This document shows positions 3 to 20,948 of a DNA stretch of 26,185 bases, in pieces. Below the pieces are notes generated by a model. That model was not told the origin of the DNA. It did not search any database and worked only from the letters and a program-made list of their open reading frames with translations. Position 1 is the first letter of the stretch, and each line of letters starts with the position of its first letter. The position numbers and the translations under genes are program-made. Location: NCBI GenBank assembly GCA_034408725.1, contig JAWXCN010000149.1, positions 1 through 26,185 of the forward strand. Reading direction: 5' to 3'. Origin of the DNA: Candidatus Hydrogenedentota bacterium. Its GTDB lineage: Bacteria > Hydrogenedentota > Hydrogenedentia > Hydrogenedentales > SLHB01.

Positions 3-149
3 CCTTGGGTGCGGGACGCCGAGCGGTCGCTTGCATACAATGATCCTGAAATAGGGATTGAATGGCCGATTCCAGTTACGGTGATTTCGCCCAAGGACGA
101 GGATGCGCCGCGCCTGTCGATGGCGGAGCGCAATTTTACGTTCCAATAG
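3..149 (+). CDS. rmlC: dTDP-4-dehydrorhamnose 3,5-epimerase, C-terminal fragment (5' end outside the window)
   Basis: Frame 3 translated by hand: PWVRDAERSLAYNDPEIGIEWPIPVTVISPKDEDAPRLSMAERNFTFQ*. This matches the RmlC C-terminal pattern 'E..i.wnDP.igI.WP....lS.KD..AP.L'. Nucleotide-sugar genes lie nearby. Confidence 0.85.
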   Translation, partial: PWVRDAERSLAYNDPEIGIEWPIPVTVISPKDEDAPRLSMAERNFTFQ

Positions 150-155
150 CCGCTA

Positions 156-1172
156 TCACTCCCGCAAGAGCACATCGCAGGTCAGTTGCACCTTCTTGAG
201 AATTTTGCGTAACGGACCTTGTTTTCGAGCCTGGGCACGAAGCTTTACAATCAACTTCCGTTGAAGCCGGTAGCGGTCCATCGGCGCGCGTTTGGGCGCG
301 GCGCCGTTTCCCGATCGGCTATCGAAGGGTTGCCAAATCGAATCCGGGGGGTAACCGCAGGTTTCCAAATCTTCGGGCGCGAGTTGCGCGATGACTTCGC
401 GCATAAGTTTTTCCTTGGCTGGGTCCGCGGCGAGGTCTTCAACCCATTTTTTGACTGATGCGGTGGTTGGGCGGGAATGCTGCTGCACGCCGATGGGATC
501 GCCGAGGCCCTTGGTCTCGCGCTCGCCACCGGCGTGATCGCCGTAGTCGATGGATTCTTTTTCAAATGGCACGCCGATATAGGTGTACATCTTTTCCATC
601 CACGTCTCCGGGTCTTTCACGAGGTCCTCGTAGCGCACCTGAAAAAACGGGACGTCTTTCTGGCGCAAAAACGAAGCCATCGCGGGCACGTACCGGTTCA
701 GAATGGGGTTATAGTTCTGAGCTGTCTGGTAGTCCCCGTCGAAAAATGAATTCGCATACGATGCGAACGTAGCCAGGGGATGGCGCGTTAGCAACACGTA
801 TTTTGCGTCTGGAAATACTTTCGCGATGAACGGGAGTATGAGGCCATACGCCGGCGTCTTGTCGAGGCACACCGTTTTGCCGCTGCCCTCCATGAACCGG
901 CCGTATAACACATCGCAATAGGAACGGCACGCGGCCCAGTAATCCTGTTCTTTATTGGGCAGGCTATCGATAAACAGTTTTTGAGATTCGGCGGCGAGCA
1001 CATGGTCGTAAGGCGCTTTATCCACCTTGGCCCACGGCCCAAGGTGGGCAAGAGGCGTCAACAAGTGGGGTTCGGGACCTCCCTTGATCATCGAATGCGA
1101 CTCCAGCATTCGTTCGAGCATGGTGCTGCCCGATCGCGGCGAACTTACGACGAAAAGCATTTGTGGTGACAT
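156..1172 (-). CDS. PAPS-dependent sulfotransferase (Sulfotransfer_3-like)
   Basis: 5'-PSB loop SSPRSGSTML, DKTP, 3'-PB motif RHPLATFAS and VRYEDLV. Start moved from 1202 to ATG 1172, which has GAAGGA 6 nt upstream. Confidence 0.9.
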   Translation of the reverse strand: MSPQMLFVVSSPRSGSTMLERMLESHSMIKGGPEPHLLTPLAHLGPWAKVDKAPYDHVLAAESQKLFIDSLPNKEQDYWAACRSYCDVLYGRFMEGSGKTVCLDKTPAYGLILPFIAKVFPDAKYVLLTRHPLATFASYANSFFDGDYQTAQNYNPILNRYVPAMASFLRQKDVPFFQVRYEDLVKDPETWMEKMYTYIGVPFEKESIDYGDHAGGERETKGLGDPIGVQQHSRPTTASVKKWVEDLAADPAKEKLMREVIAQLAPEDLETCGYPPDSIWQPFDSRSGNGAAPKRAPMDRYRLQRKLIVKLRAQARKQGPLRKILKKVQLTCDVLLRE

Positions 1173-1209
1173 AGCGGTTCCTTCATCAAAAACAATGGAC
1201 AAGGCCTAG

Positions 1210-1238
1210 ACTGTAGTGTCCGTTGCCGCGCCGTTCAA
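1210..1238 (-). promoter_or_regulatory. putative sigma70 promoter for the sulfotransferase
   Basis: Minus strand reads TTGAAC (1238-1233), 17-bp spacer, TACAGT (1215-1210). Confidence 0.5.
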
Positions 1239-1265
1239 GTCTGATTTAATTGGAACTGCCCGTGT

Positions 1266-1295
1266 TTGCCCGTGCTTTTCCGTGCGTGTTAAACT
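1266..1295 (+). promoter_or_regulatory. putative sigma70 promoter (extended -10) for the flippase-sulfatase operon
   Basis: TTGCCC (1266-1271), 18-bp spacer, TGt-TAAACT (-10 at 1290-1295). Confidence 0.45.
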
Positions 1296-1360
1296 GTCAC
1301 GTTGCCCCTTGAACAGTGGCGGCTGGTGTGAGGAATAAAGGGCGGGAAGTATCCATCGGC

Positions 1361-4300
1361 ATGAATCAGAATGTAAAAAAATCACTTTTACTGGCGAAAA
1401 GAGTGCTTCTATTCGCAATAAAGATCAGCTTGGCGGTGGGTATGTTCTCGCTGTTGTTCTACCCCGAATTTTTTGGGTTGGACCCCGAAAAGTTTCAGCG
1501 GGTAAAGCCGGGCGACATGCTCGAGGAAATTCGTCAAGCGGGCGCGCCAAGTCTCGCGTTCTGGCTGATTTTGGCTGTACTGGTGCGGGTCACCGGCATG
1601 CTATGCGGTGTGCTGCGCTGGCGCATACTGCTGCGCGGCCAAGGCCTGCGCATACCGTTCTGGTACATGGTCGGAAGCTGGTTCATCGGCAGAACCTTCG
1701 GAATTTTTCTGCCAGGCACGCTCGGCCTTGATGGCTACCGCCTATACGACTCGTCCATGTACACGGGTGAGGTCATCAAGTGCACCACGGTTATTGCGAT
1801 TGAAAAGTTGATTGGTTTCATCGCGCTGACCTTCCTTGTTTTCGTTACATTTCCGTTTGGCTTCAAACTGTTGAGTTTCAGCCTGCCGATGCTCGCGATT
1901 ACGCTCCTGGTGCTGGGCGGGTTTGTTGCCGTTTCCTTTGTAACGCTGCTCAACCCGCGCGTCATACAAGTCCTTGTGATGGCGTTTCCCACCCCCGGAT
2001 TCATCCGGTCGAAGGTCAACAAATTGGGCGCGTCCATTACGGCGTACAGCGGAAAACGCTCGGACCTTTTGCTGGCGGTGTTTTACGGTTTCATCGTACA
2101 CGCGGCCACCGCGCTGATGTATTTCTGCACGATGATGGCCATTCGAACCGAGCACACAAGTATCTTCGACGTACTATTCGCAAGCCCGCTGGTCATCTAT
2201 TCGACCGTTCTCGCGCCGACCATAGGCGGCCTCGGCGCCCGCGAAATTGTCGGCGTGGCTCTGCTTGGGGGACAGTCAGGCGCGGCGGCCGCGCTCACGT
2301 TCTTCCACCTCGGTTGGTGGGTGGGAGACGTCACGCCGTATCTCATCGGATTGCCAATTCTTGCGTTCCGCTCGCGGCCTCGCGCCGCGGATGTGCAGGC
2401 GAAACTCGCGGAGCTGCGGCAGGGCGCGGGCGATGAACCCGACCTGATGCAGTTGTCCAACAACGAAATCGCCTCATACCGAAATAAGCTCGCCACTTAT
2501 GGCGTGGCCGGCATCGCCGCGGGTCTCATTGCCGGGGCGTTGACCGGGCTGGTGGAAGCGGGATGGTTGGTGAGCCATGCCGCGGGGTTGAAGGAAGCCG
2601 TTGCATTTTGGTGGGGACCGCTGGTGTATGGACTTTGTTTTGCCGGGGTTGGCCTTGGCGTGGCGGGTGCACTCGCCTTTCTTGCGCTATTGAGAGACAG
2701 ATTTGCGGGGGCGAAGCTGGTTTTCGGAATTTGTCTGGGCGCGAGCCTTGCCGTGGCTACCGTTATCATAGGCCGGTTTCGCTACTTCCAGGACGTGCTC
2801 GGCGAGCAGCCTCTCTCTACAACTGAGAACGTAACGCTACTCGCAATTGCAGCGGGATTGTTCGTCGCGGGATTTCTCATTGGATGGATTGCCCTGGCGT
2901 TTGCTCGTGGTTCATTGAAAACGGGAATCGCCGCCGGCGCCGGCGCATATATTGTCCTCGTACTACTGGGTGTTATCTTTTCCGCGACGCGCGTACCGGT
3001 GGCCAAGGCGCTCGATCATGTGCCCGCGCAACAGACCACCGGCCCGAACATTATATTGATTGCGGTCGATACGTTGCGCGCGGACTACCTGAAAATCTAC
3101 GATCCGGCTGCGAAAGCGAATACCCCCACCATTGATGCGTTACGCGCCGATTCGGTGCTGTATCAAAAATGTATCGCGCAGTCTTCGTGGACCAAAGCGT
3201 CGTTCGCAACGATTTTCTCCGGGCAGTATCCAGAGACGCACACGGCCATGATGAAGAGTTCCGTTCTTCCCGATTCCGTGACGACGTTTCCCGAGTTGTT
3301 GCGGGAGAGCGGCTACTACACGCAGGGATTTTGCAACAACCCCAATATCGCCGCGACGTACAACTACGACCAGGGTTTTGTGGATTACACCTATCTCAGC
3401 CCGCGCTATCTCTTTGGCGCGCAGCAGTCCGCCGAAAAAATGACGCTGTATAAAGTGTTGCGGCAGGTATACGCAAAAGTCACGGGTAAACTGCCCCTGC
3501 TCAAAAACCGGATTAACGTCCACGACTTCTACCAGCCCGGAGACGTGGTGACGCAACGTGGATTGGAGTGGTTGGACAGTGCGGCGCGGCCCACGGAATC
3601 ACCGTTCTTCCTGTTCATGCACTACATGGATCCGCACGATCCCTATATGGACCACACGCAACCCGGCGTTGGTTATGCACGTGTACGGTTGGGGTCGAAG
3701 ATTGACCCCGCGACGATGAAAGAGACGTTGCAGAATGCGTACACCGGCGAAATAGAATTCACCGACCAACAACTGGGTACGCTGGTCGCCGGCTTGAAAG
3801 AACGCGGTTTGTACGACAATTCGATCATTGTCTTTACCTCCGACCACGGCGAGGAATTTCACGAGCATGGCGGCTGGTGGCATGGATTGAGTCTGTATGA
3901 CGAACAGATTGCCGTGCCGCTGATGTTCAAACTGCCGCAGAACCTCATGGCTGGGAACACGAGTACCTACCTCGGCCGGCACGTCGATATTGGTCCCACC
4001 GTGCTGCAGTTTGCGCAGACGGATCCCACAAGAATCGCGGAAGCGAAGATGCAGGGTGAGCCGCTGTTTATGTCGACCGGCGCGTCTACATTGATCGACG
4101 CGGCACAGGGCCACGTGTACTCTCATCTGAATTTCGAAGGCTACGAATTGCGTTCAATCCGAACGCCTGAGTACAAGGTTATTCATTCCAATGAGAACGA
4201 TCGCTATAAACCCGTAGAGGTATATAACGTCGCCCAGGACCCTGATGAACAGAATAATCTTGCGGGATCGGGTGATCCCAACGAGCAGGAGTTGGGCGTC

Positions 4301-4414
4301 GCGCTGGAATCCATGAGAAAGTACACCTCGGAAAATGCGCAAAAACCCGAATTCGCGGACGCGGACGCGGCGCTCGAGGAACAGCTTCGCGCAACTGGAT
4401 ACGCCGGCGAATAG
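1361..4414 (+). CDS. fusion protein: UPF0104/lysylphosphatidylglycerol-synthase-TM flippase-like domain + 5-TM bundle + sulfatase-like (alkaline phosphatase superfamily) hydrolase/transferase
   Basis: The N-terminal part has RWRILL...FLPGTLGLDGYR...IEKLIG...PTIGGLGARE, typical of UPF0104. The C-terminal part has PNIILIAVDTLRAD, SSWTKASFATIFSG, HYMDPHDPY, FTSDHGEEF, HGLSLYDEQIAVPL and DPDEQNNLA. ATG 1361 preferred over GTG 1316. Confidence 0.85.
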   Translation: MNQNVKKSLLLAKRVLLFAIKISLAVGMFSLLFYPEFFGLDPEKFQRVKPGDMLEEIRQAGAPSLAFWLILAVLVRVTGMLCGVLRWRILLRGQGLRIPFWYMVGSWFIGRTFGIFLPGTLGLDGYRLYDSSMYTGEVIKCTTVIAIEKLIGFIALTFLVFVTFPFGFKLLSFSLPMLAITLLVLGGFVAVSFVTLLNPRVIQVLVMAFPTPGFIRSKVNKLGASITAYSGKRSDLLLAVFYGFIVHAATALMYFCTMMAIRTEHTSIFDVLFASPLVIYSTVLAPTIGGLGAREIVGVALLGGQSGAAAALTFFHLGWWVGDVTPYLIGLPILAFRSRPRAADVQAKLAELRQGAGDEPDLMQLSNNEIASYRNKLATYGVAGIAAGLIAGALTGLVEAGWLVSHAAGLKEAVAFWWGPLVYGLCFAGVGLGVAGALAFLALLRDRFAGAKLVFGICLGASLAVATVIIGRFRYFQDVLGEQPLSTTENVTLLAIAAGLFVAGFLIGWIALAFARGSLKTGIAAGAGAYIVLVLLGVIFSATRVPVAKALDHVPAQQTTGPNIILIAVDTLRADYLKIYDPAAKANTPTIDALRADSVLYQKCIAQSSWTKASFATIFSGQYPETHTAMMKSSVLPDSVTTFPELLRESGYYTQGFCNNPNIAATYNYDQGFVDYTYLSPRYLFGAQQSAEKMTLYKVLRQVYAKVTGKLPLLKNRINVHDFYQPGDVVTQRGLEWLDSAARPTESPFFLFMHYMDPHDPYMDHTQPGVGYARVRLGSKIDPATMKETLQNAYTGEIEFTDQQLGTLVAGLKERGLYDNSIIVFTSDHGEEFHEHGGWWHGLSLYDEQIAVPLMFKLPQNLMAGNTSTYLGRHVDIGPTVLQFAQTDPTRIAEAKMQGEPLFMSTGASTLIDAAQGHVYSHLNFEGYELRSIRTPEYKVIHSNENDRYKPVEVYNVAQDPDEQNNLAGSGDPNEQELGVALESMRKYTSENAQKPEFADADAALEEQLRATGYAGE

Positions 4415-4439
4415 CGTCCGGCGTTGGAGAGATACGGCT

Positions 4440-5747
4440 TTGAGAATCGCAGTAATCGGAACCGGACACGTCGGGCTTGTCGTTGGCACGGGCCTGGCCG
4501 AGACGGGGCATTTTGTCACGTGCGTTGACTCCAATCGCGATCTGATCAAATCGTTGAACGAAAATGTGCTGCCGTTTTACGAACCCGGACTCGAGGAACT
4601 CATTGCGCGCAACGTCGAGGAAGAACGTCTCAAGTTCACGACGGATATCAATGCCGCGCTCGCGGAAGTGTTGCTGATTTTCATTTGTGTGGGAACGCCC
4701 GCGAGCGATTCCGGCGAAGCGGATACATCCGCGGTATTTTCCGCGCTCCAGAGTATTGGCAAGGCGATGACCGGCTACCGCATCATCGTGAACAAGAGCA
4801 CGTGCCCGGTGGGCACGACAGAGGCGATTCGCTTCACGCTAAAAAGCCTCACTGACCATCCTTTCGACGTAGTGGTCAACCCCGAATTTCTGCGACAGGG
4901 CGCCGCGGTGGACGATTTTATGCGGCCCGACCGGATCATTGTCGGTTGCGATGACGTCCGTGTCGAGGAGATCATGAAAGAGTTGTACGCGCCATTCCTG
5001 CGAACTGGCAAGCCGTTGCTGATGATGAGCATTCGCAGCGCGGAAATGGCGAAGTACGCGGTCAACGCGATGCTCGCAACGCGCATCTCCTTCATGAATG
5101 AATTCGCAAAAATATGCGAGGCGTATGGCGCGGACATCGCCGAGGTCCGGGAAGGACTCGCGGCGGATTCGCGCATTGGCGCATCCTATCTGTTCCCCGG
5201 CATTGGCTTCGGCGGGTCCTGTTTGCCGAAAGATGTGCTTGCCTGCGCGCACCTCGCCGCAAACCGCGGCATTTCGAGTCCGCTACTCGAAGCCGTGAGC
5301 GCGGTGAACGAATCACAGCAACGGGATTTCGTCAAACGCATCCTCGAATACTACGGCGAAGACATTGCGCGCAAGCGTGTGGCCGTGTGGGGAGCCAGCT
5401 TCAAACCCAAGACCGACGATCTGCGCGGCGGCCCTGCTTTGCGGGTCATCGACGCCTTGCTCGATGCGGGCGCGTCCGTCGTTGTTTACGACCCTGTTGC
5501 GGAAGGAACGTTGCGCGAACAGTACGGCGACAAAATATCCATAACGCATAAGAACTATGCCGCGCTTGAGGGCGCGGACGGACTTGTCATTTGCACGGAA
5601 TGGAACGAATTCCGCCGGCCCGACTACGAGCGGATGGCCTCCTTATTGCGAGAGCGCGTCATCTTTGACGGTCGAAATCTGTATACAGCGAAATCTCTTG
5701 CTCAACATGGGTTCCGATACTTCAGTATCGGGCGGCCCGCGGTGTAA
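4440..5747 (+). CDS. ugd: UDP-glucose/GDP-mannose 6-dehydrogenase
   Basis: RIAVIGTGHVG Rossmann motif, CVGTP, KSTCPVGT, NPEFLRQG, catalytic GFGGSCLPKD and FKPKTDDLR. Likely start is TTG 4440, after GGAGAG at 4426-4431. Confidence 0.92.
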   Translation: MRIAVIGTGHVGLVVGTGLAETGHFVTCVDSNRDLIKSLNENVLPFYEPGLEELIARNVEEERLKFTTDINAALAEVLLIFICVGTPASDSGEADTSAVFSALQSIGKAMTGYRIIVNKSTCPVGTTEAIRFTLKSLTDHPFDVVVNPEFLRQGAAVDDFMRPDRIIVGCDDVRVEEIMKELYAPFLRTGKPLLMMSIRSAEMAKYAVNAMLATRISFMNEFAKICEAYGADIAEVREGLAADSRIGASYLFPGIGFGGSCLPKDVLACAHLAANRGISSPLLEAVSAVNESQQRDFVKRILEYYGEDIARKRVAVWGASFKPKTDDLRGGPALRVIDALLDAGASVVVYDPVAEGTLREQYGDKISITHKNYAALEGADGLVICTEWNEFRRPDYERMASLLRERVIFDGRNLYTAKSLAQHGFRYFSIGRPAV

Positions 5748-5752
5748 CGCAC

Positions 5753-6682
5753 ATGCCGCGCGTAGCACTCATCACGGGGGCGCAAGGGTTTGTTGGACGT
5801 GTGCTTTCAGCGCGGCTGAAAGAGGACGGCTGGCTCGTCCGCGAGTCAGTCATGCCGGGGCAGCCGGAAGGGCCAGGCAGCTTCGCGTGTGACATTACTG
5901 ATCTCGCCCAGGTGCGAAAACTTGTCGGCAACTCTGACGGACTCACGCATGTGTTTCATCTTGCCGCAGTGACATTCGTGCCTGCGTCGTCGGCCGATCC
6001 GGGCGGTACGTTTGAGGTAAACGTGAACGGAACGATAAACCTCGTGGAATGCACCCGCGCCTTGCAGCCCAAAGCGCGGTTTCTGTTTATTGGCAGTGCG
6101 GCGGTGTATGGCACGCCCCGCATCACGCCCGTCTTGGAGACCCATCGGTTTGCGCCCCGCGAACCCTATGCCATCTCGAAGGCCGCGGCGGACTGCTATT
6201 GCGACTATGCCGCTCGCGCATACCCGATTGAGATTTTGCGGATGCGGCCATTTAACCATTCCGGCGCGGGTCAATCCGATCAATTTGTTCTCTCGAATTT
6301 CGCGCGGCAAATCGCGCGCATCGAACGTGGGGCGCAACCACCCGTGCTCAAGGTTGGTAACATCGACGCTGGGCGGGATTTTCTCCACGTCGAAGACGTG
6401 GTACGCGCGTACGCGGAGGCCGCGCTTCGCGGAAAAGCCGGCGAAGCGTATAACGTGTGTTCAGGAAAAGCGATCACCATTCGCGCCGCGTTGGACGCTT
6501 TGCTTGCCAAGTCTCCCGCGAAAATCGAGGTGGTGCGGGAATCGACCCGCTTGCGATCGTCCGAAGTATCAACGATCTCCGGTTCTTACGAAAAGCTCCA
6601 GGCTGATACCGGGTGGAAACCCACGCTATTGTTCGAGCGCGTGCTCGACGACCTGCTCGCGTATTGGCGGGGTCAACCGTAA
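5753..6682 (+). CDS. extended SDR, GDP-4-dehydro-6-deoxy-D-mannose reductase (Rmd)/GDP-mannose dehydratase-like
   Basis: ITGAQGFVG, HLAA, catalytic YAISK, RPFNHSGAGQ and VGNIDAGRDFLHVEDVVRAY. Confidence 0.8.
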   Translation: MPRVALITGAQGFVGRVLSARLKEDGWLVRESVMPGQPEGPGSFACDITDLAQVRKLVGNSDGLTHVFHLAAVTFVPASSADPGGTFEVNVNGTINLVECTRALQPKARFLFIGSAAVYGTPRITPVLETHRFAPREPYAISKAAADCYCDYAARAYPIEILRMRPFNHSGAGQSDQFVLSNFARQIARIERGAQPPVLKVGNIDAGRDFLHVEDVVRAYAEAALRGKAGEAYNVCSGKAITIRAALDALLAKSPAKIEVVRESTRLRSSEVSTISGSYEKLQADTGWKPTLLFERVLDDLLAYWRGQP

Positions 6683-7671
6683 TGCCGTCGCCGCTTCCGC
6701 CCGAACCCGCGGGCGGTGCCGCAGGCCCGCCCCCTCCCTCTTCCAAATCCCGCGTGACCTGGCGTATTGCGCTGCGGAACACCGCGATCATATCGCTGAT
6801 CACAATCATACTGGTGGAGATTATTCTCCGCGCGCTCGGTGTTGCGAACCCGGTGTTGTACGAACGCGACGTAAACACAGGATATCGCCTTAAACCCAAT
6901 CAGCACGTCACGTATTTCGGCAACACGATTCACATCAACGAACACGGTGTGCGAGACGCGCGAACGCTTGAACGGCCTGACCCATTCCGCAAGCGGGTTC
7001 TGGTCCTAGGCGATTCCGTGACTTGGGGTGGCGTTCTTCTGCCGCAGGATGCCTTGTTCACGTCTGTCGCCGAATCGCATTTGGAATATACGGATATTAT
7101 TAACGCGGGTGTGAACGGATATTCCGTGAACCAAATGGCCAAACTTTACCGGACACACCTAGAAAGCCTTCGCCCGGACATCGTCATCGTATGCGTTATT
7201 CCGCGCGACTTCGAGCGTCCTCCCATCACGCGCCTCAGTGGCAAGGGGGTAGCGTTTCCCGAAACGCGCCCGGCGTTGGCGTTGCTTCATGCAATGGCCA
7301 TTTGCCGACAGGTGTTGCAGGACCGGTATCATTGGAAATGGCTATCGGTCTCGCCGGCAACTGCCGTTGAGGCGCAATCGGAGTTTACATATGAGGACGT
7401 AAATGTCCGGTCAATTTCGGAGTTACGTAAGGAAATACACTGCCCGTTACTCTTGGTTTTCCTTCCGTCGCAGGACACCGAATCCGAGCGGAAGGTTCGA
7501 CAAACTCAAATCGCGGAACTTCCACGCATTGGAGTTTCCGCGATAGACATTGGTGGACAGTTAGAAACTTCACCCCGCGACTTTATAGATCGGGTCCATC
7601 TATCGGCGGATGGGCACAAAAAAATTGGAACGGCACTTGCCGCCGTGATACAGGATTTCGCGGGTGAATGA
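6682..7671 (+). CDS. membrane-anchored SGNH/GDSL family esterase or acyltransferase
   Basis: N-terminal TM ending in VEIILR, block I LGDSVTWG, block II NAGVNGYS and block V DRVH. ATG 6682 overlaps the upstream stop (TAATG coupling). Confidence 0.8.
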   Translation: MPSPLPPEPAGGAAGPPPPSSKSRVTWRIALRNTAIISLITIILVEIILRALGVANPVLYERDVNTGYRLKPNQHVTYFGNTIHINEHGVRDARTLERPDPFRKRVLVLGDSVTWGGVLLPQDALFTSVAESHLEYTDIINAGVNGYSVNQMAKLYRTHLESLRPDIVIVCVIPRDFERPPITRLSGKGVAFPETRPALALLHAMAICRQVLQDRYHWKWLSVSPATAVEAQSEFTYEDVNVRSISELRKEIHCPLLLVFLPSQDTESERKVRQTQIAELPRIGVSAIDIGGQLETSPRDFIDRVHLSADGHKKIGTALAAVIQDFAGE

Positions 7672-7725: not shown

Positions 7726-9333
7726 CTAATTCGATTCGGTAATTTCATTGGTTGCCATCCTGGAATCTGCCGTGGAGATGGCTTGTTTTTTTAGAGCCCT
7801 CGGTTTGCGCTTAACGGCGGGATTACCGGTTCCGTTGCCGCGGTTCTCGTGTTCCTCCTGATCGCGCATCGCGTGACGCATTTCGACGACATGCCGTTCG
7901 TTCACGGACGCCGCGGCGCGTAGTTCGAGAAACGATTCGCGCACAAACTCGATGAGCGAGTCCACGTCCGGTGCTGCATTGCCATCCGCGATCAACGAGA
8001 CGAAAAGCCGTTGGTCATAGCTGGTGACACCACAACTGATGCCCATTTCAAGCGCAATCGGGAGCAGTGGGTAATAGCTCAATAGCCGTTTTCCTACGCA
8101 GTAAAGCGGAATCTGTGGTCCCGGCACATTGGTGCAAATGAGATGCATGGGCGGCACTTGCCATGCCATGCCGAGAATTTTCTGCACGAGTGGAGTTGCG
8201 ACACTCCCGAGGGACAAAGCCTGCACCGGGGCTGGAACGCCCTGCAACGCGGAAAACATAAGGCTAACGGCTTCGCTGACGCGCGACTTTTTCAGTTCTG
8301 TTGTGTTCTCATTGATGATGCGCAGCCGTTCGACCGGGTCTTTGACTTCCAGAGGCACTTCTAACGGTAAGAACGAGATGCGATTGCCCATGTCGCCGCG
8401 CTCGTCTTCCGTGCGAATGTTCACCGGGACCAGCACGCGCAAATAACGTTTACGCAGACTCTCACCGTGGAGTTGCAGATACCGCTGGCACGCGCCGCTG
8501 AGCACCGTCAGGACTACGTCGTTCAACGTCCCACCGCAAGCCGCCCGAATTGCGCGTGCTTCCGCGAATGAGAAATCCGCGAACGCCAGTTTACGTTCGC
8601 CGGAAAACGGTTTGTTGAACGGCATGCGTTTGGCCGGGGCAAGAAAGTCGCGCATGGTCGCCGCAAATTCCTTCGCAGCCGCCTTGGTTTGCGTGGGGTC
8701 TAAGCCCTTTGCATAGTCCACAAGACCCTTCCGGAACCGCGACCAATGGTCTACCGCATCTGTCGCATTGTCACGCAGTGCGTCATACAGGAGCTGGCCC
8801 GAGTTCGGGATTGGCGGGGGAAGATATTTTTCCTTTTTGATTTTCTCCGATTTCGGCCATGCATCGAAAATAACATACAAGAGGCCGATTCCCGCGACGC
8901 CATCGATCATGCAATGGTGTACCCGCGCGAACATCCCTGTTCGATTGCCCTTCATGCCCTCGACGACGTAGATTTCCCACAGTGGCCGGTTGCGGTCGAG
9001 CATGCCGCGAAACAATTCAGAGCATAACGCGTGAAAAGCTTTCTCATCCCCGGGATCGTCGCAGGTGATCAAATGGACGTGATTGTTGATATCGAAATCG
9101 GGATCGAATTCCCAGGTGGGCATGCCGATATTGAAGGGCGCGGGGACGACACGCTGGCGGTAGCGGGGAATGAGGTGCAAGCGGGAATCAATGTGTGACA
9201 CGAACCGTTTGAACGGCACTCTTCCATCGAACTGCGCAACGCACCCGACATTCATCGGTTCTTCTTCCCGTTCGCTGAACAGGAAGAACGCATCCATCGG
9301 CGACAACCGCCGCTTTAGGGTGCTCGATGACAT
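7726..9333 (-). CDS. wax ester synthase/diacylglycerol acyltransferase (WS/DGAT)
   Basis: LSPMDAFFL, PRYRQRV, LDRNRPLWE, catalytic HHCMIDG, GTLNDVVL and TNVPGP. ATG 9333 follows GGAG/GAAGGA. Confidence 0.93.
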   Translation of the reverse strand: MSSSTLKRRLSPMDAFFLFSEREEEPMNVGCVAQFDGRVPFKRFVSHIDSRLHLIPRYRQRVVPAPFNIGMPTWEFDPDFDINNHVHLITCDDPGDEKAFHALCSELFRGMLDRNRPLWEIYVVEGMKGNRTGMFARVHHCMIDGVAGIGLLYVIFDAWPKSEKIKKEKYLPPPIPNSGQLLYDALRDNATDAVDHWSRFRKGLVDYAKGLDPTQTKAAAKEFAATMRDFLAPAKRMPFNKPFSGERKLAFADFSFAEARAIRAACGGTLNDVVLTVLSGACQRYLQLHGESLRKRYLRVLVPVNIRTEDERGDMGNRISFLPLEVPLEVKDPVERLRIINENTTELKKSRVSEAVSLMFSALQGVPAPVQALSLGSVATPLVQKILGMAWQVPPMHLICTNVPGPQIPLYCVGKRLLSYYPLLPIALEMGISCGVTSYDQRLFVSLIADGNAAPDVDSLIEFVRESFLELRAAASVNERHVVEMRHAMRDQEEHENRGNGTGNPAVKRKPRALKKQAISTADSRMATNEITESN

Positions 9334-9394
9334 TGTCCTTCGTCTCCGTGGAAACAATCATTCCAACACAGGTGATCGCAGACGGTCAAGCGCG

Positions 9395-10496: not shown

Positions 10497-12017
10497 TTAT
10501 CGGCGGCCACGCCGCGTGATTGCATAATCAAAGTATGAATGTTCATTGACCACCGATTTGTGCAGTTCCGAAGTATATGTGGAATCGTCCAATGCGCGTT
10601 CAGTCGTAATTTTGTCTTTTGACACGGTCACCGATGCAGGCTCCGGTCCGTCTTTCAAAAGTTCCGCCATGACCCGGCCATCCATTGGTGCGGGCGGGCT
10701 AATGCCGAGGACGCGGCACACTGTTGGGGCAATGTCTACGTTCGCCGTGGGTACATTGCTTTTCATCCCCGTTTTCAATGCCGGACCGGCTGCAATAAGC
10801 GTGTTATGAATATCAAAAGGGCTCGACGTGCCGTGGCCGGCAATGCCTCCTTGCGCCGTCATGCCTTTCCAGCCATATTGATTCGCTTCGTCAGACCAAG
10901 TCACATCGACCAAAATATCTCCGGAGCGTTCGTGGTTCCAATTGATGCTGTCGAACGAAAACGTCCCCGGAACGCGGCCTTGGGCATCACCTGGTTTCGC
11001 AGCCGCGGTGAACACGGGACCTATCCAGGGCGTGCGATGAAGCACATCCACGATTCTGTTTATCGTGGCGTCATCGTGATTGTCGACGTAGATCGCGCCT
11101 TCGGACACGATTACGTCCGTGCTGGCGAGGCTTTTCTTCACACCTTCCTGCACGAGCAACTGCATGAGGTTGGCGGGCCCGGAGTGCGTCGAGAACCCAT
11201 GATCGGATGTCACGAAGATGTTCAACCGCTCCGATAATTTGCGGGCTTCCAGTTCTGACAAAAGCCTGCCGACTTCCTCGTCGACATGCTTAAGGGCGGC
11301 GACGGTGTCCGGTGTGCCGATGCCTTTTGAGTGCGCGGTGTGGTCGGGATCAGTGATCCAAAGAAACGACACGCGCGCGCCGACTTCCGCAATGCCCATT
11401 TGCACGAGGGCGTCTACCGCGCGGCGATTTCCCGCCACTTGCGGATAAGCCTCCGCCGGTTCCGGGCCGAACCGTTTTTCGACTCCTTCACGAGTGGACT
11501 CTGGCAGCACCATTTCGGAATTTACGATGCCACCGCCCTTCACCTTATGGTTGAGCAGATACGACGATCCGCTCGAACCGGCGCTCGCGACGAACAACTT
11601 GATGCCAGCGCCGTCCAGAATCTCACCGAGCGAAGGTGCTGTGAGCAGTTTTCCGCCGGTGGCATCCTCGACCTTCATCAAGTTCTGCGCGTTGCCGGTG
11701 CTGAATGGTTTTTGGGAATCCACCTCGGGCACGTAAATCGTATTGCCAAGGATGCCGTGCCGCGCCGGATAGCAGCCGGTTGCGAAGGACGATGCGTTTA
11801 CCCGCGTAACCGTGGGAAACACGGAGTGATGATTCGCGCACACGACGCCGCGTTCACCGAGCGCGTGCAGATTCGGCATGAGCTCGGACGTGACATAGTC
11901 TGGCCGCAGCCCATCCAACACAATTACGAGAGCGCTCTGCTGCTCTTCCGCCACGGCGGGACACAATCCAGCGGAGAATACGAAAGCCAGGATTGAGAAC
12001 GCGGTGGTGAGCTTCAT
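10497..12017 (-). CDS. secreted alkaline-phosphatase-superfamily nucleotide pyrophosphatase/phosphodiesterase
   Basis: Signal peptide (AVA|EE), LDGLRPD, Thr nucleophile in FPTVTRVN, DPDHTAH, TSDHG and GHG. Confidence 0.85.
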   Translation of the reverse strand: MKLTTAFSILAFVFSAGLCPAVAEEQQSALVIVLDGLRPDYVTSELMPNLHALGERGVVCANHHSVFPTVTRVNASSFATGCYPARHGILGNTIYVPEVDSQKPFSTGNAQNLMKVEDATGGKLLTAPSLGEILDGAGIKLFVASAGSSGSSYLLNHKVKGGGIVNSEMVLPESTREGVEKRFGPEPAEAYPQVAGNRRAVDALVQMGIAEVGARVSFLWITDPDHTAHSKGIGTPDTVAALKHVDEEVGRLLSELEARKLSERLNIFVTSDHGFSTHSGPANLMQLLVQEGVKKSLASTDVIVSEGAIYVDNHDDATINRIVDVLHRTPWIGPVFTAAAKPGDAQGRVPGTFSFDSINWNHERSGDILVDVTWSDEANQYGWKGMTAQGGIAGHGTSSPFDIHNTLIAAGPALKTGMKSNVPTANVDIAPTVCRVLGISPPAPMDGRVMAELLKDGPEPASVTVSKDKITTERALDDSTYTSELHKSVVNEHSYFDYAITRRGRR

Positions 12018-19475: not shown

Positions 19476-20948
19476 CTACAAGAACGAGTCCACCAGCCTG
19501 CACATATTTTGAAACGCGCGTAACATAAATGACCGTTTGTTCCATTCCTCGAGGGTCAGTTCGTCGCAGCTTTCCAGATAGCGCGCCTCGATTGCGCGTT
19601 GCCGCTGGACGATTTCCTTATCGTAGATGACAAGGCTGACCTCGCTATTCAATGCAAACGATCTGATATCCACGTTGCTCGAGCCGACCACCGCGATAGA
19701 ATCGTCGATGCTCATATGTTTGGCGTGCAGAAAACGTGGCTTGTACAGATGAATCCGCACTCCACATTCGAGCAGTTCTTCGTAAAACGATTGTTGCGCA
19801 AACCCCACCAGAAACTGGTCCCGTTCATGCGGGAGGATCAGATGCACCTCGACACCGGACATGACGGCGGTCTGCAAGGCCTGGAGCAAGGGTTCATCCG
19901 GCACAAAATATGGCGTAGTGATCACGATGCGTTTTTCCGCGTCGTGAATCAGCGCTACGACGAGGTGCTGCACGCTCGCCCCCGTATATCCGGGTCCGCT
20001 TGGCAGGAGTTGCGCCGTCACCGAGCCCGCGGGCTTGATCATTGGAAACAAGCCTTCGCCGCCGATTTCAGATTCGACTTCACAATAGCGGTCTGCCAGA
20101 AATGTCACTTGAAGTTGCGAGACCACCGGCCCTTCCACGCGAGCAACCAAATCTTCGAATATGAGACCGGGTTTAAACTCCGAAATGACAAGATTCTGTG
20201 AGCCTATGTATCCAACTTGCCCGTCGATGACCACTATCTTGCGGTGGTTTCGCAGATCAAAACGCGCCGCCTTCGCACGAAACATCCCGACCGGCAGCAT
20301 GGCGGAAACTTCAATGCCCATCCCCGTCATGACGGGTGCAAGGTGAGTTAGGCCGGGCCGCGATCCCAGATAGTCCATCAATACGCGGCACGCCACGCCG
20401 CGGCGCACTGCGCGTCCAAGTGCCTCGACAACTTTGCGCCCAACCGCGTCGTCGGCGATGATGTAGTATAAAAGATGGATATGATGCTCCGCGGCGTCGA
20501 TGTCTCCGATCAATCGCAAAATGGCGGTGTCATATTCATCCAACAATTCCACGGCGTTGCCACCGAGGGGCGCGAATTCGCCCAGACGCTCCACAAGTTT
20601 TGTGGTGTGATGAACGAGCGGCGGCACCTCGCGTTTCTGCAAGGGCCATCGTGTATTCCATTGGTGCGTAGCCCGTCTTACGAACGTCGCCGCCCGGCCA
20701 TGCAATTCGTGCCGCTTTTTGGGCAGGTAGATGCGTCCAAACCACGCATAGAGCAGCACGCCGACTACGGGAAGGAAAAAGATGAACAATAACCACGTGC
20801 GCGCGGCGGCGGGCGTTTTGCGATGCGGCACATAGAAGAGCATCACGATGCGGAGAGTCCACTCGATGATCAGGTAAAGCGCCGCCACCGATGGAAACAG
20901 AAACGCGGCGTGCGAACTTTGAAATGCCTCACTGCTTTCGCCCAGCAC
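19476..20948 (-). CDS. cls: cardiolipin synthase (PLD superfamily, ClsA-like)
   Basis: Two N-terminal TMs (RKTPAAARTWLL...PVVG...Y..FG), two HKD motifs (RNHRKIVVIDG, LHAKHMSIDD), SGP, TPYFVPD and GSSNVDIRSFALNSE. Start codon uncertain. Confidence 0.92.
   Translation of the reverse strand: MLGESSEAFQSSHAAFLFPSVAALYLIIEWTLRIVMLFYVPHRKTPAAARTWLLFIFFLPVVGVLLYAWFGRIYLPKKRHELHGRAATFVRRATHQWNTRWPLQKREVPPLVHHTTKLVERLGEFAPLGGNAVELLDEYDTAILRLIGDIDAAEHHIHLLYYIIADDAVGRKVVEALGRAVRRGVACRVLMDYLGSRPGLTHLAPVMTGMGIEVSAMLPVGMFRAKAARFDLRNHRKIVVIDGQVGYIGSQNLVISEFKPGLIFEDLVARVEGPVVSQLQVTFLADRYCEVESEIGGEGLFPMIKPAGSVTAQLLPSGPGYTGASVQHLVVALIHDAEKRIVITTPYFVPDEPLLQALQTAVMSGVEVHLILPHERDQFLVGFAQQSFYEELLECGVRIHLYKPRFLHAKHMSIDDSIAVVGSSNVDIRSFALNSEVSLVIYDKEIVQRQRAIEARYLESCDELTLEEWNKRSFMLRAFQNMCRLVDSFL

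Follow-up and report, generated by a model that had tools for sequence, protein, structure and literature searches.

A conserved three-gene module of Hydrogenedentota, with a sulfotransferase and a translocator–sulfatase-fold fusion, that may modify the cell envelope

The subject of this report is a pair of divergently transcribed genes in a 26,185-nucleotide stretch of DNA from a Candidatus Hydrogenedentota bacterium (hereafter the window; the first 26 kb of contig C149, JAWXCN010000149.1, in a metagenome-assembled genome, or MAG, of 5.17 Mb and 280 contigs). One gene encodes a sulfotransferase and the other a large membrane protein in which a lipid-translocator-type domain is fused to a sulfatase-fold domain (the fusion). 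Together with a gene of the nucleotide pyrophosphatase/phosphodiesterase (NPP) type, found on another contig, they make up a conserved three-gene phyletic module, two members of which are in the window. It is probable that the sulfotransferase and the fusion work in one pathway. A more specific scheme, in which a lipid is sulfated, flipped across the membrane and subjected to transfer or cleavage of its head group on the outside, is offered tentatively and with somewhat less than even confidence, and every substrate and chemical step in it is one that we infer. Sulfated molecules of the bacterial envelope are known, and the sulfate donor 3′-phosphoadenosine-5′-phosphosulfate (PAPS) is confined to the cytoplasm; we know of no account of the means by which such chemistry gets to the far face of the membrane. 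The system combines known logic with new parts and points to an undescribed envelope-lipid modification pathway.

All 135 available genomes of the phylum were searched with the sulfotransferase and with the fusion, and the positions of the matches were then compared; these MAGs are incomplete, and related genomes are not independent of one another. The sulfotransferase was found in 120 genomes and the fusion in 121; 116 genomes had both, 4 had a sulfotransferase but no fusion, 5 a fusion but no sulfotransferase, and 10 had neither gene. Where both genes occur, they share a contig in 39 genomes, lie no more than 5 kb apart in 37, and lie no more than 600 bp apart in 23; the 37 linked pairs comprise 32 divergent and 5 tandem arrangements. 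Linked pairs span 7 of the 13 families having both genes (f1, 20 of 47 genomes; f2, 3 of 6; f6, 1 of 1; f7, 5 of 12; f9, 1 of 1; f10, 5 of 13; f11, 2 of 4; family, genus and locus labels are our own), and there were none in f3 (0 of 20), f8 (0 of 8), or f4, f5, f12 and f13 (one genome each). The flanks of the adjacent pair vary by family, and include SecDF, YajC and TGT genes; a GT-C glycosyltransferase; and a GH95 gene near a pair that has a type II secretion system (T2SS) ATPase gene inside it. Because the flanks differ from family to family, the adjacency appears to be maintained and not simply inherited as gene order. An earlier note, made from this DNA alone, had staked its proposal on linkage of the two genes across genomes, and such linkage is what was found, in 37 of the 116 genomes and 7 families, with one adjacent case and further co-occurrence beyond the phylum. 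Around 20 unlinked sulfotransferase loci on long contigs, no fusion ortholog was found within ±8 kb, and no other neighbor family recurred in at least 4 of the loci, although antisense picks of open reading frames (ORFs) may hide weakly conserved neighbors there. In one locus (L100), a T2SS/type IV pilus ATPase gene separates the two members of the pair, and L124 also has an intervening gene. Both loci belong to family f10, and in both the fusion is followed directly by a second sulfatase-like paralog (L100:13001-15103) of 700 aa, anchored by a transmembrane (TM) segment and 27–28% identical to the outer part of the fusion.

The pairing is also seen beyond the phylum. An exhaustive search of representative sequences returned two forms of the membrane protein, the fused form and a form of ~630 aa without the translocator domain, which aligns from about residue 380 of the fusion and consists of five TM helices and the alkaline phosphatase (AP)-fold domain (5TM+AP). 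The fusion family is a large one: of 8000 candidates scored, 510 matched at E ≤ 0.001, and almost every match is ~1000 aa in length and shows an identical set of four Pfam families. For Myxococcota, 201 evenly sampled genomes were searched for the sulfotransferase and the 5TM+AP protein at E ≤ 1e-50, and they were found in 28 and 31 genomes, respectively; 27 genomes had both, 1 had a sulfotransferase without the AP gene, 4 had the AP gene without a sulfotransferase, and 169 had neither. Put differently, a sulfotransferase was present in just 1 of the 170 genomes that lack the AP gene. At one Myxococcota locus (L047), the gene for a sulfotransferase 47% identical to that of the window and a 5TM+AP gene (624 aa) are divergently arranged; PF03706 is encoded by a gene of its own at a distance of 6 kb, and all three genes are inside 9 kb. 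The fusion of the window is represented there by separate genes, clustered with the sulfotransferase. L047 also holds a short GT2 gene and a gene for a large spermine-synthase-like membrane protein. Finally, of 15 genomes that belong to other lineages and have a fusion or a 5TM+AP gene, 12 encode a full-length sulfotransferase ortholog (43–56% identical); the labels of these lineages are Polyangiaceae, Myxococcota, delta proteobacterium/Deltaproteobacteria, Binatia, Thermodesulfobacteriota, Proteobacteria and unclassified. A further locus labeled Nitrospirales (L010) was rejected as an independent case, since it is the same contig as G048:C2 from the window’s own order.

The third member of the module is a PF01663 (NPP-type) gene of ~555 aa that directly follows the 5TM+AP gene in 9 split-gene loci. 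Its ortholog in the window’s own genome encodes 526 aa on another contig (G000:C222:1890-3461; L146:1492-3072, minus strand) and is 49% identical over its full length (E 1e-143). The protein has no signal peptide and no TM segment, begins at the metal-binding strand, carries a T-F-P nucleophile motif, and is predicted to be cytoplasmic. The gene is present in 122 of the 135 phylum genomes, and the three genes occur all together in 112, are jointly missing from 8 (of g26, g28, g29, f14 and f15), and are partially represented in 15. Among the 201 Myxococcota genomes, it was found in 26; 21 genomes have all three genes, 4 have only the AP and NPP-like genes, 6 have only the sulfotransferase and AP genes, 2 have a single gene, and 168 have none. 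The C-terminus of the NPP-like protein, ...RLRDLGY, resembles the conserved end of the fusion family, ...L-x-A-L-G-Y. Clusters of Phosphodiest (NPP-type) genes also surround the fusion in a Fermentibacteria MAG (L015:6379-9394) and the 5TM+AP gene in L047. The window itself contains a gene for a secreted-looking NPP/alkaline-phosphatase-family protein with a hydrophobic N-terminus (NPP506; 10497-12017, minus strand; Phosphodiest E 7e-43), and this was considered as a partner and rejected, as it is neither conserved near the pair nor a close relative of the co-occurring NPP-like gene.

The fusion (1361..4414, plus strand) is 1017 aa long when read from ATG 1361, and it consists of a translocator-type domain, a linker with a five-helix TM module, and a sulfatase-fold domain. 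The first part (aa 1–343; 1361..2389), recognized by its Pfam match and TM segments, is an MprF/YbhN-type translocator-like domain (PF03706, also called PplT). LPG_synthase_TM (PF03706) matched aa 47–329 with 75.4 bits against a cut-off of 33.4 (E 7e-21; profile positions 15–290 of 302); the Pfam positions given here are those of an ORF begun at GTG 1316, from which 15 is subtracted to reach the ATG 1361 numbering used elsewhere. The domain is kept across 16 aligned homologs, and scans with Pfam and NCBIfam gave no match of the fusion to a C-terminal aminoacyl-phosphatidylglycerol synthase domain. The second part (aa 344–540; 2390..2980) is predicted from hydropathy, charge counts and a structural model to begin with a basic linker in the cytoplasm and to continue as five TM helices, which hydropathy places at aa 377–540. 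The third part (aa 541–1017; 2981..4414) is an S1-sulfatase-like AP-fold domain, with Sulfatase matching aa 577–900 (GTG numbering) at 131.8 bits against a cut-off of 25 (E 4e-38) and SGSH_C at E 4e-12. An AlphaFold model of residues 365–1017, built with 40 homologs, shows five long helices and then a globular domain (pLDDT 90, pTM 0.90), and the charge distribution predicts that the AP domain lies outside the cytoplasmic membrane. The earlier description of the protein as a flippase/sulfatase-fold fusion stands for its domains, both of which exceed their Pfam cut-offs, and for its fold, but sulfatase activity is unlikely, given the threonine at the formylglycine position.

By sequence, the outer domain is closest to the S1 sulfatases, with 5g2v (BT4656) matched at 7e-29, and by fold the choline sulfatase 6g5z and BT4656 were the top Foldseek matches (E ~5e-21, TM-score up to 0.80 on the target). 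The formylglycine motif of such enzymes, C/S-x-P/A-x-R, is absent from the domain. HMMER pairs its T-K-A-S-F (within SWTKASF) with S-G-P-S-R of 5g2v, Thr611 (codon 3191-3193, checked in the DNA) occupies the formylglycine position, and Phe615 stands in place of the motif’s arginine. W-T-K is invariant in the 16 fusions and the threonine is invariant in 40 stand-alone homologs; of the related loci that could be aligned over this segment, all 77 likewise have threonine at this position in their best match, and these loci were gathered with two motifs of this clade and describe the clade and not sulfatases at large. All 16 fusions share D570, H759, D828-H829, H836 and H841, with the metal and histidine positions also kept in the 40 homologs. 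The sulfate-binding set of EfAS comprises R65, K110, H112, H220 and K324, as given in the part of PMC12421950 available to us. The outer domain keeps the H...H-D-P block, the region of EfAS K110/H112 is unaligned, and the late sulfate-binding lysine aligns to Gly842, beside His841. Because a threonine cannot become formylglycine, the canonical sulfatase mechanism is excluded, and, judged by its residues, the domain cannot be a canonical sulfatase. Members of this Thr-type clade carry source names such as “arylsulfatase A-like enzyme” or “sulfatase-like hydrolase/transferase”.

The combination of five TM helices, a domain on the outside, a threonine nucleophile and Asp/His metal ligands is one that we take to be the arrangement of LtaS and EptA. 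The outer domain recalls these enzymes by analogy, but membership in their family is unsupported. NCBIfam models of EptA, LtaS and YejM scored 27–34 bits against the fusion (E 1e-6 to 3e-8), as compared with cut-offs of 561–970; LtaP (4uop) matched the outer domain at 7e-8, far behind the sulfatases at 7e-29; and no LtaS or EptA entry was among the Foldseek matches listed to rank 50.

The sulfotransferase (156..1172, minus strand; 338 aa from ATG 1172) matched Sulfotransfer_3 at 119.5 bits against a cut-off of 27, and a hydropathy scan found no TM segment in it, both in agreement with its earlier description as a PAPS-type sulfotransferase without membrane helices. Its best solved relatives by sequence are the sulfotransferase (ST) domains of CurM and of olefin synthase (OLS), at E 1.8e-17 (4gbm) and 4.9e-17 (4gox), with the tyrosylprotein sulfotransferases (TPSTs) ranking after them (TPST1, 1e-9 by phmmer). 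By fold, human TPST1 and TPST2 were the top Foldseek matches, with TPSTs and CurM ST both at about E 3e-9 and TM-scores of up to 0.73 on the target. To judge from these matches, it is a cytoplasmic PAPS-type enzyme of the CurM-ST/TPST-like branch of Sulfotransfer_3. CurM and OLS ST sulfate a β-hydroxyacyl chain. The invariant columns P12-R13-S14-G15-x-T17 and R130-H131-P132...S138 align to the same loops of CurM ST, which we take to be the 5′-phosphosulfate- and 3′-phosphate-binding loops. A supply of PAPS is indicated by a gene in the same genome (G000:C253) for adenosine 5′-phosphosulfate (APS) kinase, PF01583, at 226 bits and above cut-off.

The sulfotransferase is single-copy and 54–85% identical within the phylum, and 41–56% identical in other phyla. 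Such conservation would be unusual for an enzyme decorating a variable glycan, and because of it a conserved substrate seems the better fit. Its basic C-terminal tail, RYRLQRK...CDVLLRE, is kept even in the Myxococcota ortholog and was modeled, at low confidence, as helices at 300–315 and 321–337, with residues 320–337 having the highest amphipathic moment in the protein; such a tail would fit an element for docking to the membrane or to a partner. No longer, fused forms of the sulfotransferase were found at E ≤ 1e-20, which is weak evidence, and a complex prediction with residues 1–560 of the fusion gave a score of 0.00, was made without controls, and is not used either way.

A reading in which a lipid is sulfated and then flipped follows from the published coupling of PF03706 domains to cytoplasmic lipid head-group enzymes. 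PF03706/PplT domains have been reported to be coupled by fusion or operon to such enzymes, as in MprF (10.1101/2022.03.11.483950, main text), and the head-group enzymes of GpgSDF in Pseudomonas aeruginosa and HexSDF in Clostridium difficile are encoded beside a predicted flippase of the UPF0104/YbhN type (PMC12713373, in the portion available). By extension, the sulfotransferase would work on the cytoplasmic side of the membrane, where its acceptor would be a hydroxyl on either a conserved membrane lipid or a lipid-linked head group, and the PF03706 domain would carry the sulfated lipid to the outer leaflet, much as MprF does with aminoacyl-phosphatidylglycerol. The external threonine/metal site could then attack the head group and either pass it to an envelope acceptor or cleave it, in the manner of LtaS and EptA. 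The NPP-like enzyme (G000:C222:1890-3461) probably acts on the cytoplasmic side. Sugar-nucleotide genes (ugd, Rmd-like and RmlC-like here; heptose-pathway genes in relatives) and an SGNH gene may supply or edit a local acceptor, and they would not be part of the conserved core. The earlier note had proposed a trans-envelope system for glycans; its sequence of cytoplasmic modification, flipping and an external AP-fold enzyme fits the domain order, the predicted topology and the PF03706 literature, but its focus on glycans fits less well with how conserved the sulfotransferase is.

Comparison with known systems shows what is shared and what would be new. Like MprF, the fusion has a PF03706 domain, and the proposed logic is the same, with a cytoplasmic head-group modification followed by a physically coupled outward translocator. 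Unlike MprF, it lacks an aminoacyl-phosphatidylglycerol synthase, the cytoplasmic enzyme would be a separate sulfotransferase, and its translocator is continued by a module of five TM helices and a catalytic domain predicted to be external, which implies a further step on the outside. With LtaS, EptA (MCR), OpgB and YejM it has in common five TM helices followed by an extracytoplasmic PF00884 domain, a threonine nucleophile and Asp/His ligands, but its domain is nearer to the formylglycine sulfatases, keeps SGSH_C, has an extra translocator, and is accompanied across genomes by a sulfotransferase and an NPP-like enzyme. CurM/OLS ST (4gbm, 4gox) and the TPSTs, as the best solved relatives of the sulfotransferase, have the PAPS-binding loops in common with it; in contrast to CurM/OLS ST, it stands alone, with a basic C-terminal tail and outside any polyketide synthase. 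Cytoplasmic PAPS-dependent sulfation followed by export through MmpL or Wzx/Wzy-type machinery is known for mycobacterial sulfolipid-1 (Stf0, MmpL8) and for the exopolysaccharide synechan. These routes resemble the proposed pathway in that sulfation precedes export, but they are not known to involve a PF03706 translocator or, on the outside, a sulfatase-fold enzyme of the Thr type. The S1 sulfatases (6g5z, 5g2v and EfAS, 9koq) share with the outer domain its fold, sequence and D...D-H metal ligands of the PMH/EfAS type (as described in the available part of PMC12421950), whereas the fusion has T-K-A-S-F for C/S-x-P/A-x-R, Phe for Arg, Gly842 for the late Lys, and a membrane anchor. In GpgSDF and HexSDF, soluble cytoplasmic head-group enzymes are likewise encoded next to a YbhN-family flippase gene, but those enzymes add and deacetylate an amino sugar, and the portion of PMC12713373 available to us describes neither a sulfotransferase nor an external AP-fold domain in them. 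A literature search returned no account of this fusion, of a sulfotransferase paired with it, or of a sulfatase-fold clade of the Thr type. The main text of the PplT preprint, figures and supplements aside, describes other fusion partners and lacks the word sulfatase (10.1101/2022.03.11.483950), and the available text of a metagenome paper on Hydrogenedentes lists sulfotransferase genes merely as a sign of sulfated polysaccharide production.

Several observations weigh against the lipid-sulfation scheme or against a shared pathway altogether. Among structural neighbors of the sulfotransferase, TPSTs are as near as CurM ST, and a peptide or protein acceptor is possible. In sequence and fold alike, the outer domain resembles true sulfatases more closely than it does LtaS/EptA, and we know of no precedent for a threonine-nucleophile enzyme of the sulfatase fold that acts on a sulfated lipid. 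One of the two genes occurs alone in 9 phylum genomes, and in 77 of the 116 genomes with both they are on different contigs, including all 20 of f3 and all 8 of f8. Only 1 of the 27 co-occurring Myxococcota pairs is adjacent, 4 genomes of that phylum have the AP and NPP-like genes without a sulfotransferase, and the co-occurrence there, uncorrected for kinship, could reflect the inheritance of one clade. Full-length fusions outside the phylum have variable neighbors, with no sulfotransferase nearby and nothing recurrent, and the neighbors of distant members are likewise variable.

The main rival reading, conceivable though rather unlikely, is that the two proteins are parallel modifiers with no sulfated lipid donor between them. 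The fusion would then be an LtaS/EptA/OpgB-like transferase that takes phosphoglycerol, phosphoethanolamine or some other phospho-head group off an ordinary phospholipid, supplied by its translocator, and transfers it to an envelope glycan or lipid, while the sulfotransferase sulfates the same product or its precursor. The threonine nucleophile, the D/D-H metal ligands and the invariant histidines behind five TM helices are in keeping with this, as are the weak NCBIfam matches described above, and a shared target would also give co-occurrence. The gap between true sulfatases and LtaS/EptA in the searches (5g2v at 7e-29 versus 4uop at 7e-8, with none listed to Foldseek rank 50) argues the other way, and the tight divergent pairs in 22 genomes, the split cluster of L047 and the lack of any other recurrent sulfotransferase neighbor suggest a closer coupling. 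The boldest reading has sulfate itself, or a sulfated head group, as what is transferred: a lipid sulfate carrier would be flipped by PF03706, and a PAPS-independent sulfotransfer, through a sulfo-threonine, would serve periplasmic or outer-membrane acceptors. Such a trans-membrane relay is a long shot, yet it would explain why a sulfatase scaffold that has lost its hydrolytic formylglycine still has an invariant metal site and is found together with a sulfotransferase. If true, sulfate would have a donor system comparable to those based on undecaprenyl-phosphate-sugars and phospholipid head groups.

A glycan-centered system, of the kind the earlier note had in mind, would have all seven genes working as one, with a lipid-linked sugar (from ugd, rmd and rmlC) being sulfated on its uronic acid or 6-deoxyhexose, the fusion flipping it and transferring or editing it on a surface glycan, and the SGNH protein editing acyl groups. 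The genes are translationally close (25, 5 and −1 bp), the same block occurs in g1, g17 and g18, and sugar-nucleotide genes are loosely near the pair or the fusion in L009, L092 and L106. Against this, ugd, the Rmd-like gene and SGNH are found at only 11, 10 and 7 of 36 pair loci, in three genera only; the block is absent from the L047 cluster of Myxococcota; a sulfotransferase that is 54–85% identical would be far more conserved than the usual glycan decorators; and the rmlC/rmd neighbors in relatives belong to a nucleotide-heptose-type pathway, which needs no sulfation module. On balance, such a system is improbable. Slighter still is the likelihood of a TPST/RaxST-like enzyme that sulfates a peptide or the cytoplasmic part of an envelope protein, with the fusion off pathway or a mere membrane dock. 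It would suit the TPST1/TPST2 matches by Foldseek and phmmer and the resemblance of the conserved tail to a docking element, but CurM and OLS ST are better matches by sequence, no small ORF or candidate substrate gene recurs beside the sulfotransferase, and its sole recurrent neighbor carries a lipid-translocator domain. Linker residue Y373 of the fusion, considered as a TPST-type acceptor, was rejected, being invariant in the 16 fusions and not among the conserved columns of the 40 stand-alone forms. There is, lastly, a small chance that the two genes have no functional link, their adjacency being inherited gene order and their co-occurrence a clade effect. Non-adjacency in most genomes with both (77 of 116 in the phylum; 26 of 27 in Myxococcota), with kinship uncorrected, would agree with this, whereas the adjacency in 7 families with every flank different, its reappearance in another phylum where the fusion is split, the presence of both genes in 12 of 15 genomes of diverse lineages, the 1 sulfotransferase among 170 Myxococcota genomes without the AP gene, and the joint absence of the trio from 8 phylum genomes all speak against it.

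The module occurs in most phylum genomes searched (120, 121 and 122 of 135 for its three members) and recurs in Myxococcota and several other lineages. It unites an orphan sulfotransferase, a large sulfatase-fold clade with threonine in place of formylglycine, and a cytoplasmic NPP-like enzyme, all of them uncharacterized and strongly conserved. The Thr-type clade may be counted as sulfatases in genome and metagenome surveys; if so, the potential for degradation of sulfated polysaccharides is overestimated. Identification of the product would give a function to thousands of genes, and it could bring to light a membrane lipid class, or a route of envelope decoration, not seen before.

As for the locus itself, every gene named in the earlier note was confirmed by ORF listing and family scans, and the nearest relatives of its proteins bear the labels Candidatus Hydrogenedentota/Hydrogenedentes. 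The divergent starts of the sulfotransferase and the fusion are separated by 188 bp (1173..1360), where a divergent promoter region of ~190 bp had been claimed, and the gaps of 25, 5 and −1 bp reported for the operon that begins with the fusion were identical when re-read from the sequence. Alignment of five species of the genus shows invariant columns in one block of the spacer, TTTGCC (1265-1270), a gap of 18–19 nt, and TG-n-TAAACT (1287-1295), and no conservation outside 1265-1295. Located ~65 nt upstream of the fusion’s start codon, the block looks like an extended −10 promoter for the fusion operon. A scan of the spacer for the sigma-70 consensus gave only one weak site, on the minus strand (1377-1348).

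Downstream of the fusion are a nucleotide-sugar 6-dehydrogenase gene, ugd (4440..5747, plus strand; TTG start, with GGAGAG upstream), an Rmd-like gene for a GDP-4-keto-6-deoxy-sugar reductase of the short-chain dehydrogenase/reductase (SDR) family (5753..6682, plus strand), and a gene for a membrane-anchored SGNH/GDSL-like hydrolase or acyltransferase (6682..7671, plus strand). Their earlier identifications agree with the family scans. Ugd matched TIGR03026 at 435.5 bits (cut-off 189.8) and has all three Pfam domains; UDP-glucose is its likely substrate sugar, and the cut-offs of the TuaD and AglM equivalog models were not reached. The Rmd-like SDR matched 2pk3 (GDP-6-deoxy-D-lyxo-4-hexulose reductase) at E 6e-59 over 5–306, 6x3b at E 4e-53, and Pfam GDP_Man_Dehyd at E 3e-55, with no curated NCBIfam model reaching its cut-off. 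The SGNH-like protein has one N-terminal TM segment, GDS at residue 110 and DRVH at residue 303; it scored 31.9 bits with GDSL_2, just under the cut-off of 32.9, and no usable relative was found in the PDB. As integral parts of the system these genes and rmlC do not hold up, since they lie beside the pair only in g1, g17 and g18: among the 36 pair loci, ugd was matched in 11 and the Rmd-like gene beside it in 10, and the SGNH copies, 41–47% identical, were in 7.

At the other end, rmlC had been said to abut the locus. An RmlC-like sugar-nucleotide 3,5-epimerase does end there (3..148, plus strand), and relatives have the full gene, but the contig start cuts it to its C-terminal 48 codons in the window. 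By tblastn, RmlC-like matches occupy the same place in L108–L117 and L122, and in L108 and L114 a full dTDP_sugar_isom gene (PF00908, E 2.7e-66) was found. In those two loci (L108:4558-7853 and L114:12137-18209), the gene is flanked upstream by genes for a SIS (GmhA-like) protein, an NTP_transferase-HAD fusion, a GHMP kinase and a DegT aminotransferase. RmlC-like and Rmd-like enzymes act in nucleotide-heptose-type pathways, and the “rhamnose” genes of the locus may act on a nucleotide-heptose instead. Elsewhere, ugd is convergent to the fusion in L009, an NTP_transferase gene follows the fusion in L092, and a PMT_2 GT-C gene is near the sulfotransferase in L106, a loose recurrence that fits an envelope theme and proves nothing.

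Two other genes of the window may also have to do with lipids. Convergent with the operon is a gene for a wax-ester synthase/diacylglycerol acyltransferase (7726-9357, minus strand; TIGR02946 above cut-off), copies of which, 56–74% identical, lie near the block in L108, L109 and L115. Further along (19476-20948, minus strand) is a gene that, by eye, is of the cardiolipin synthase/phospholipase D type, with two HxK-like motifs, and is another candidate for a lipid head-group enzyme.

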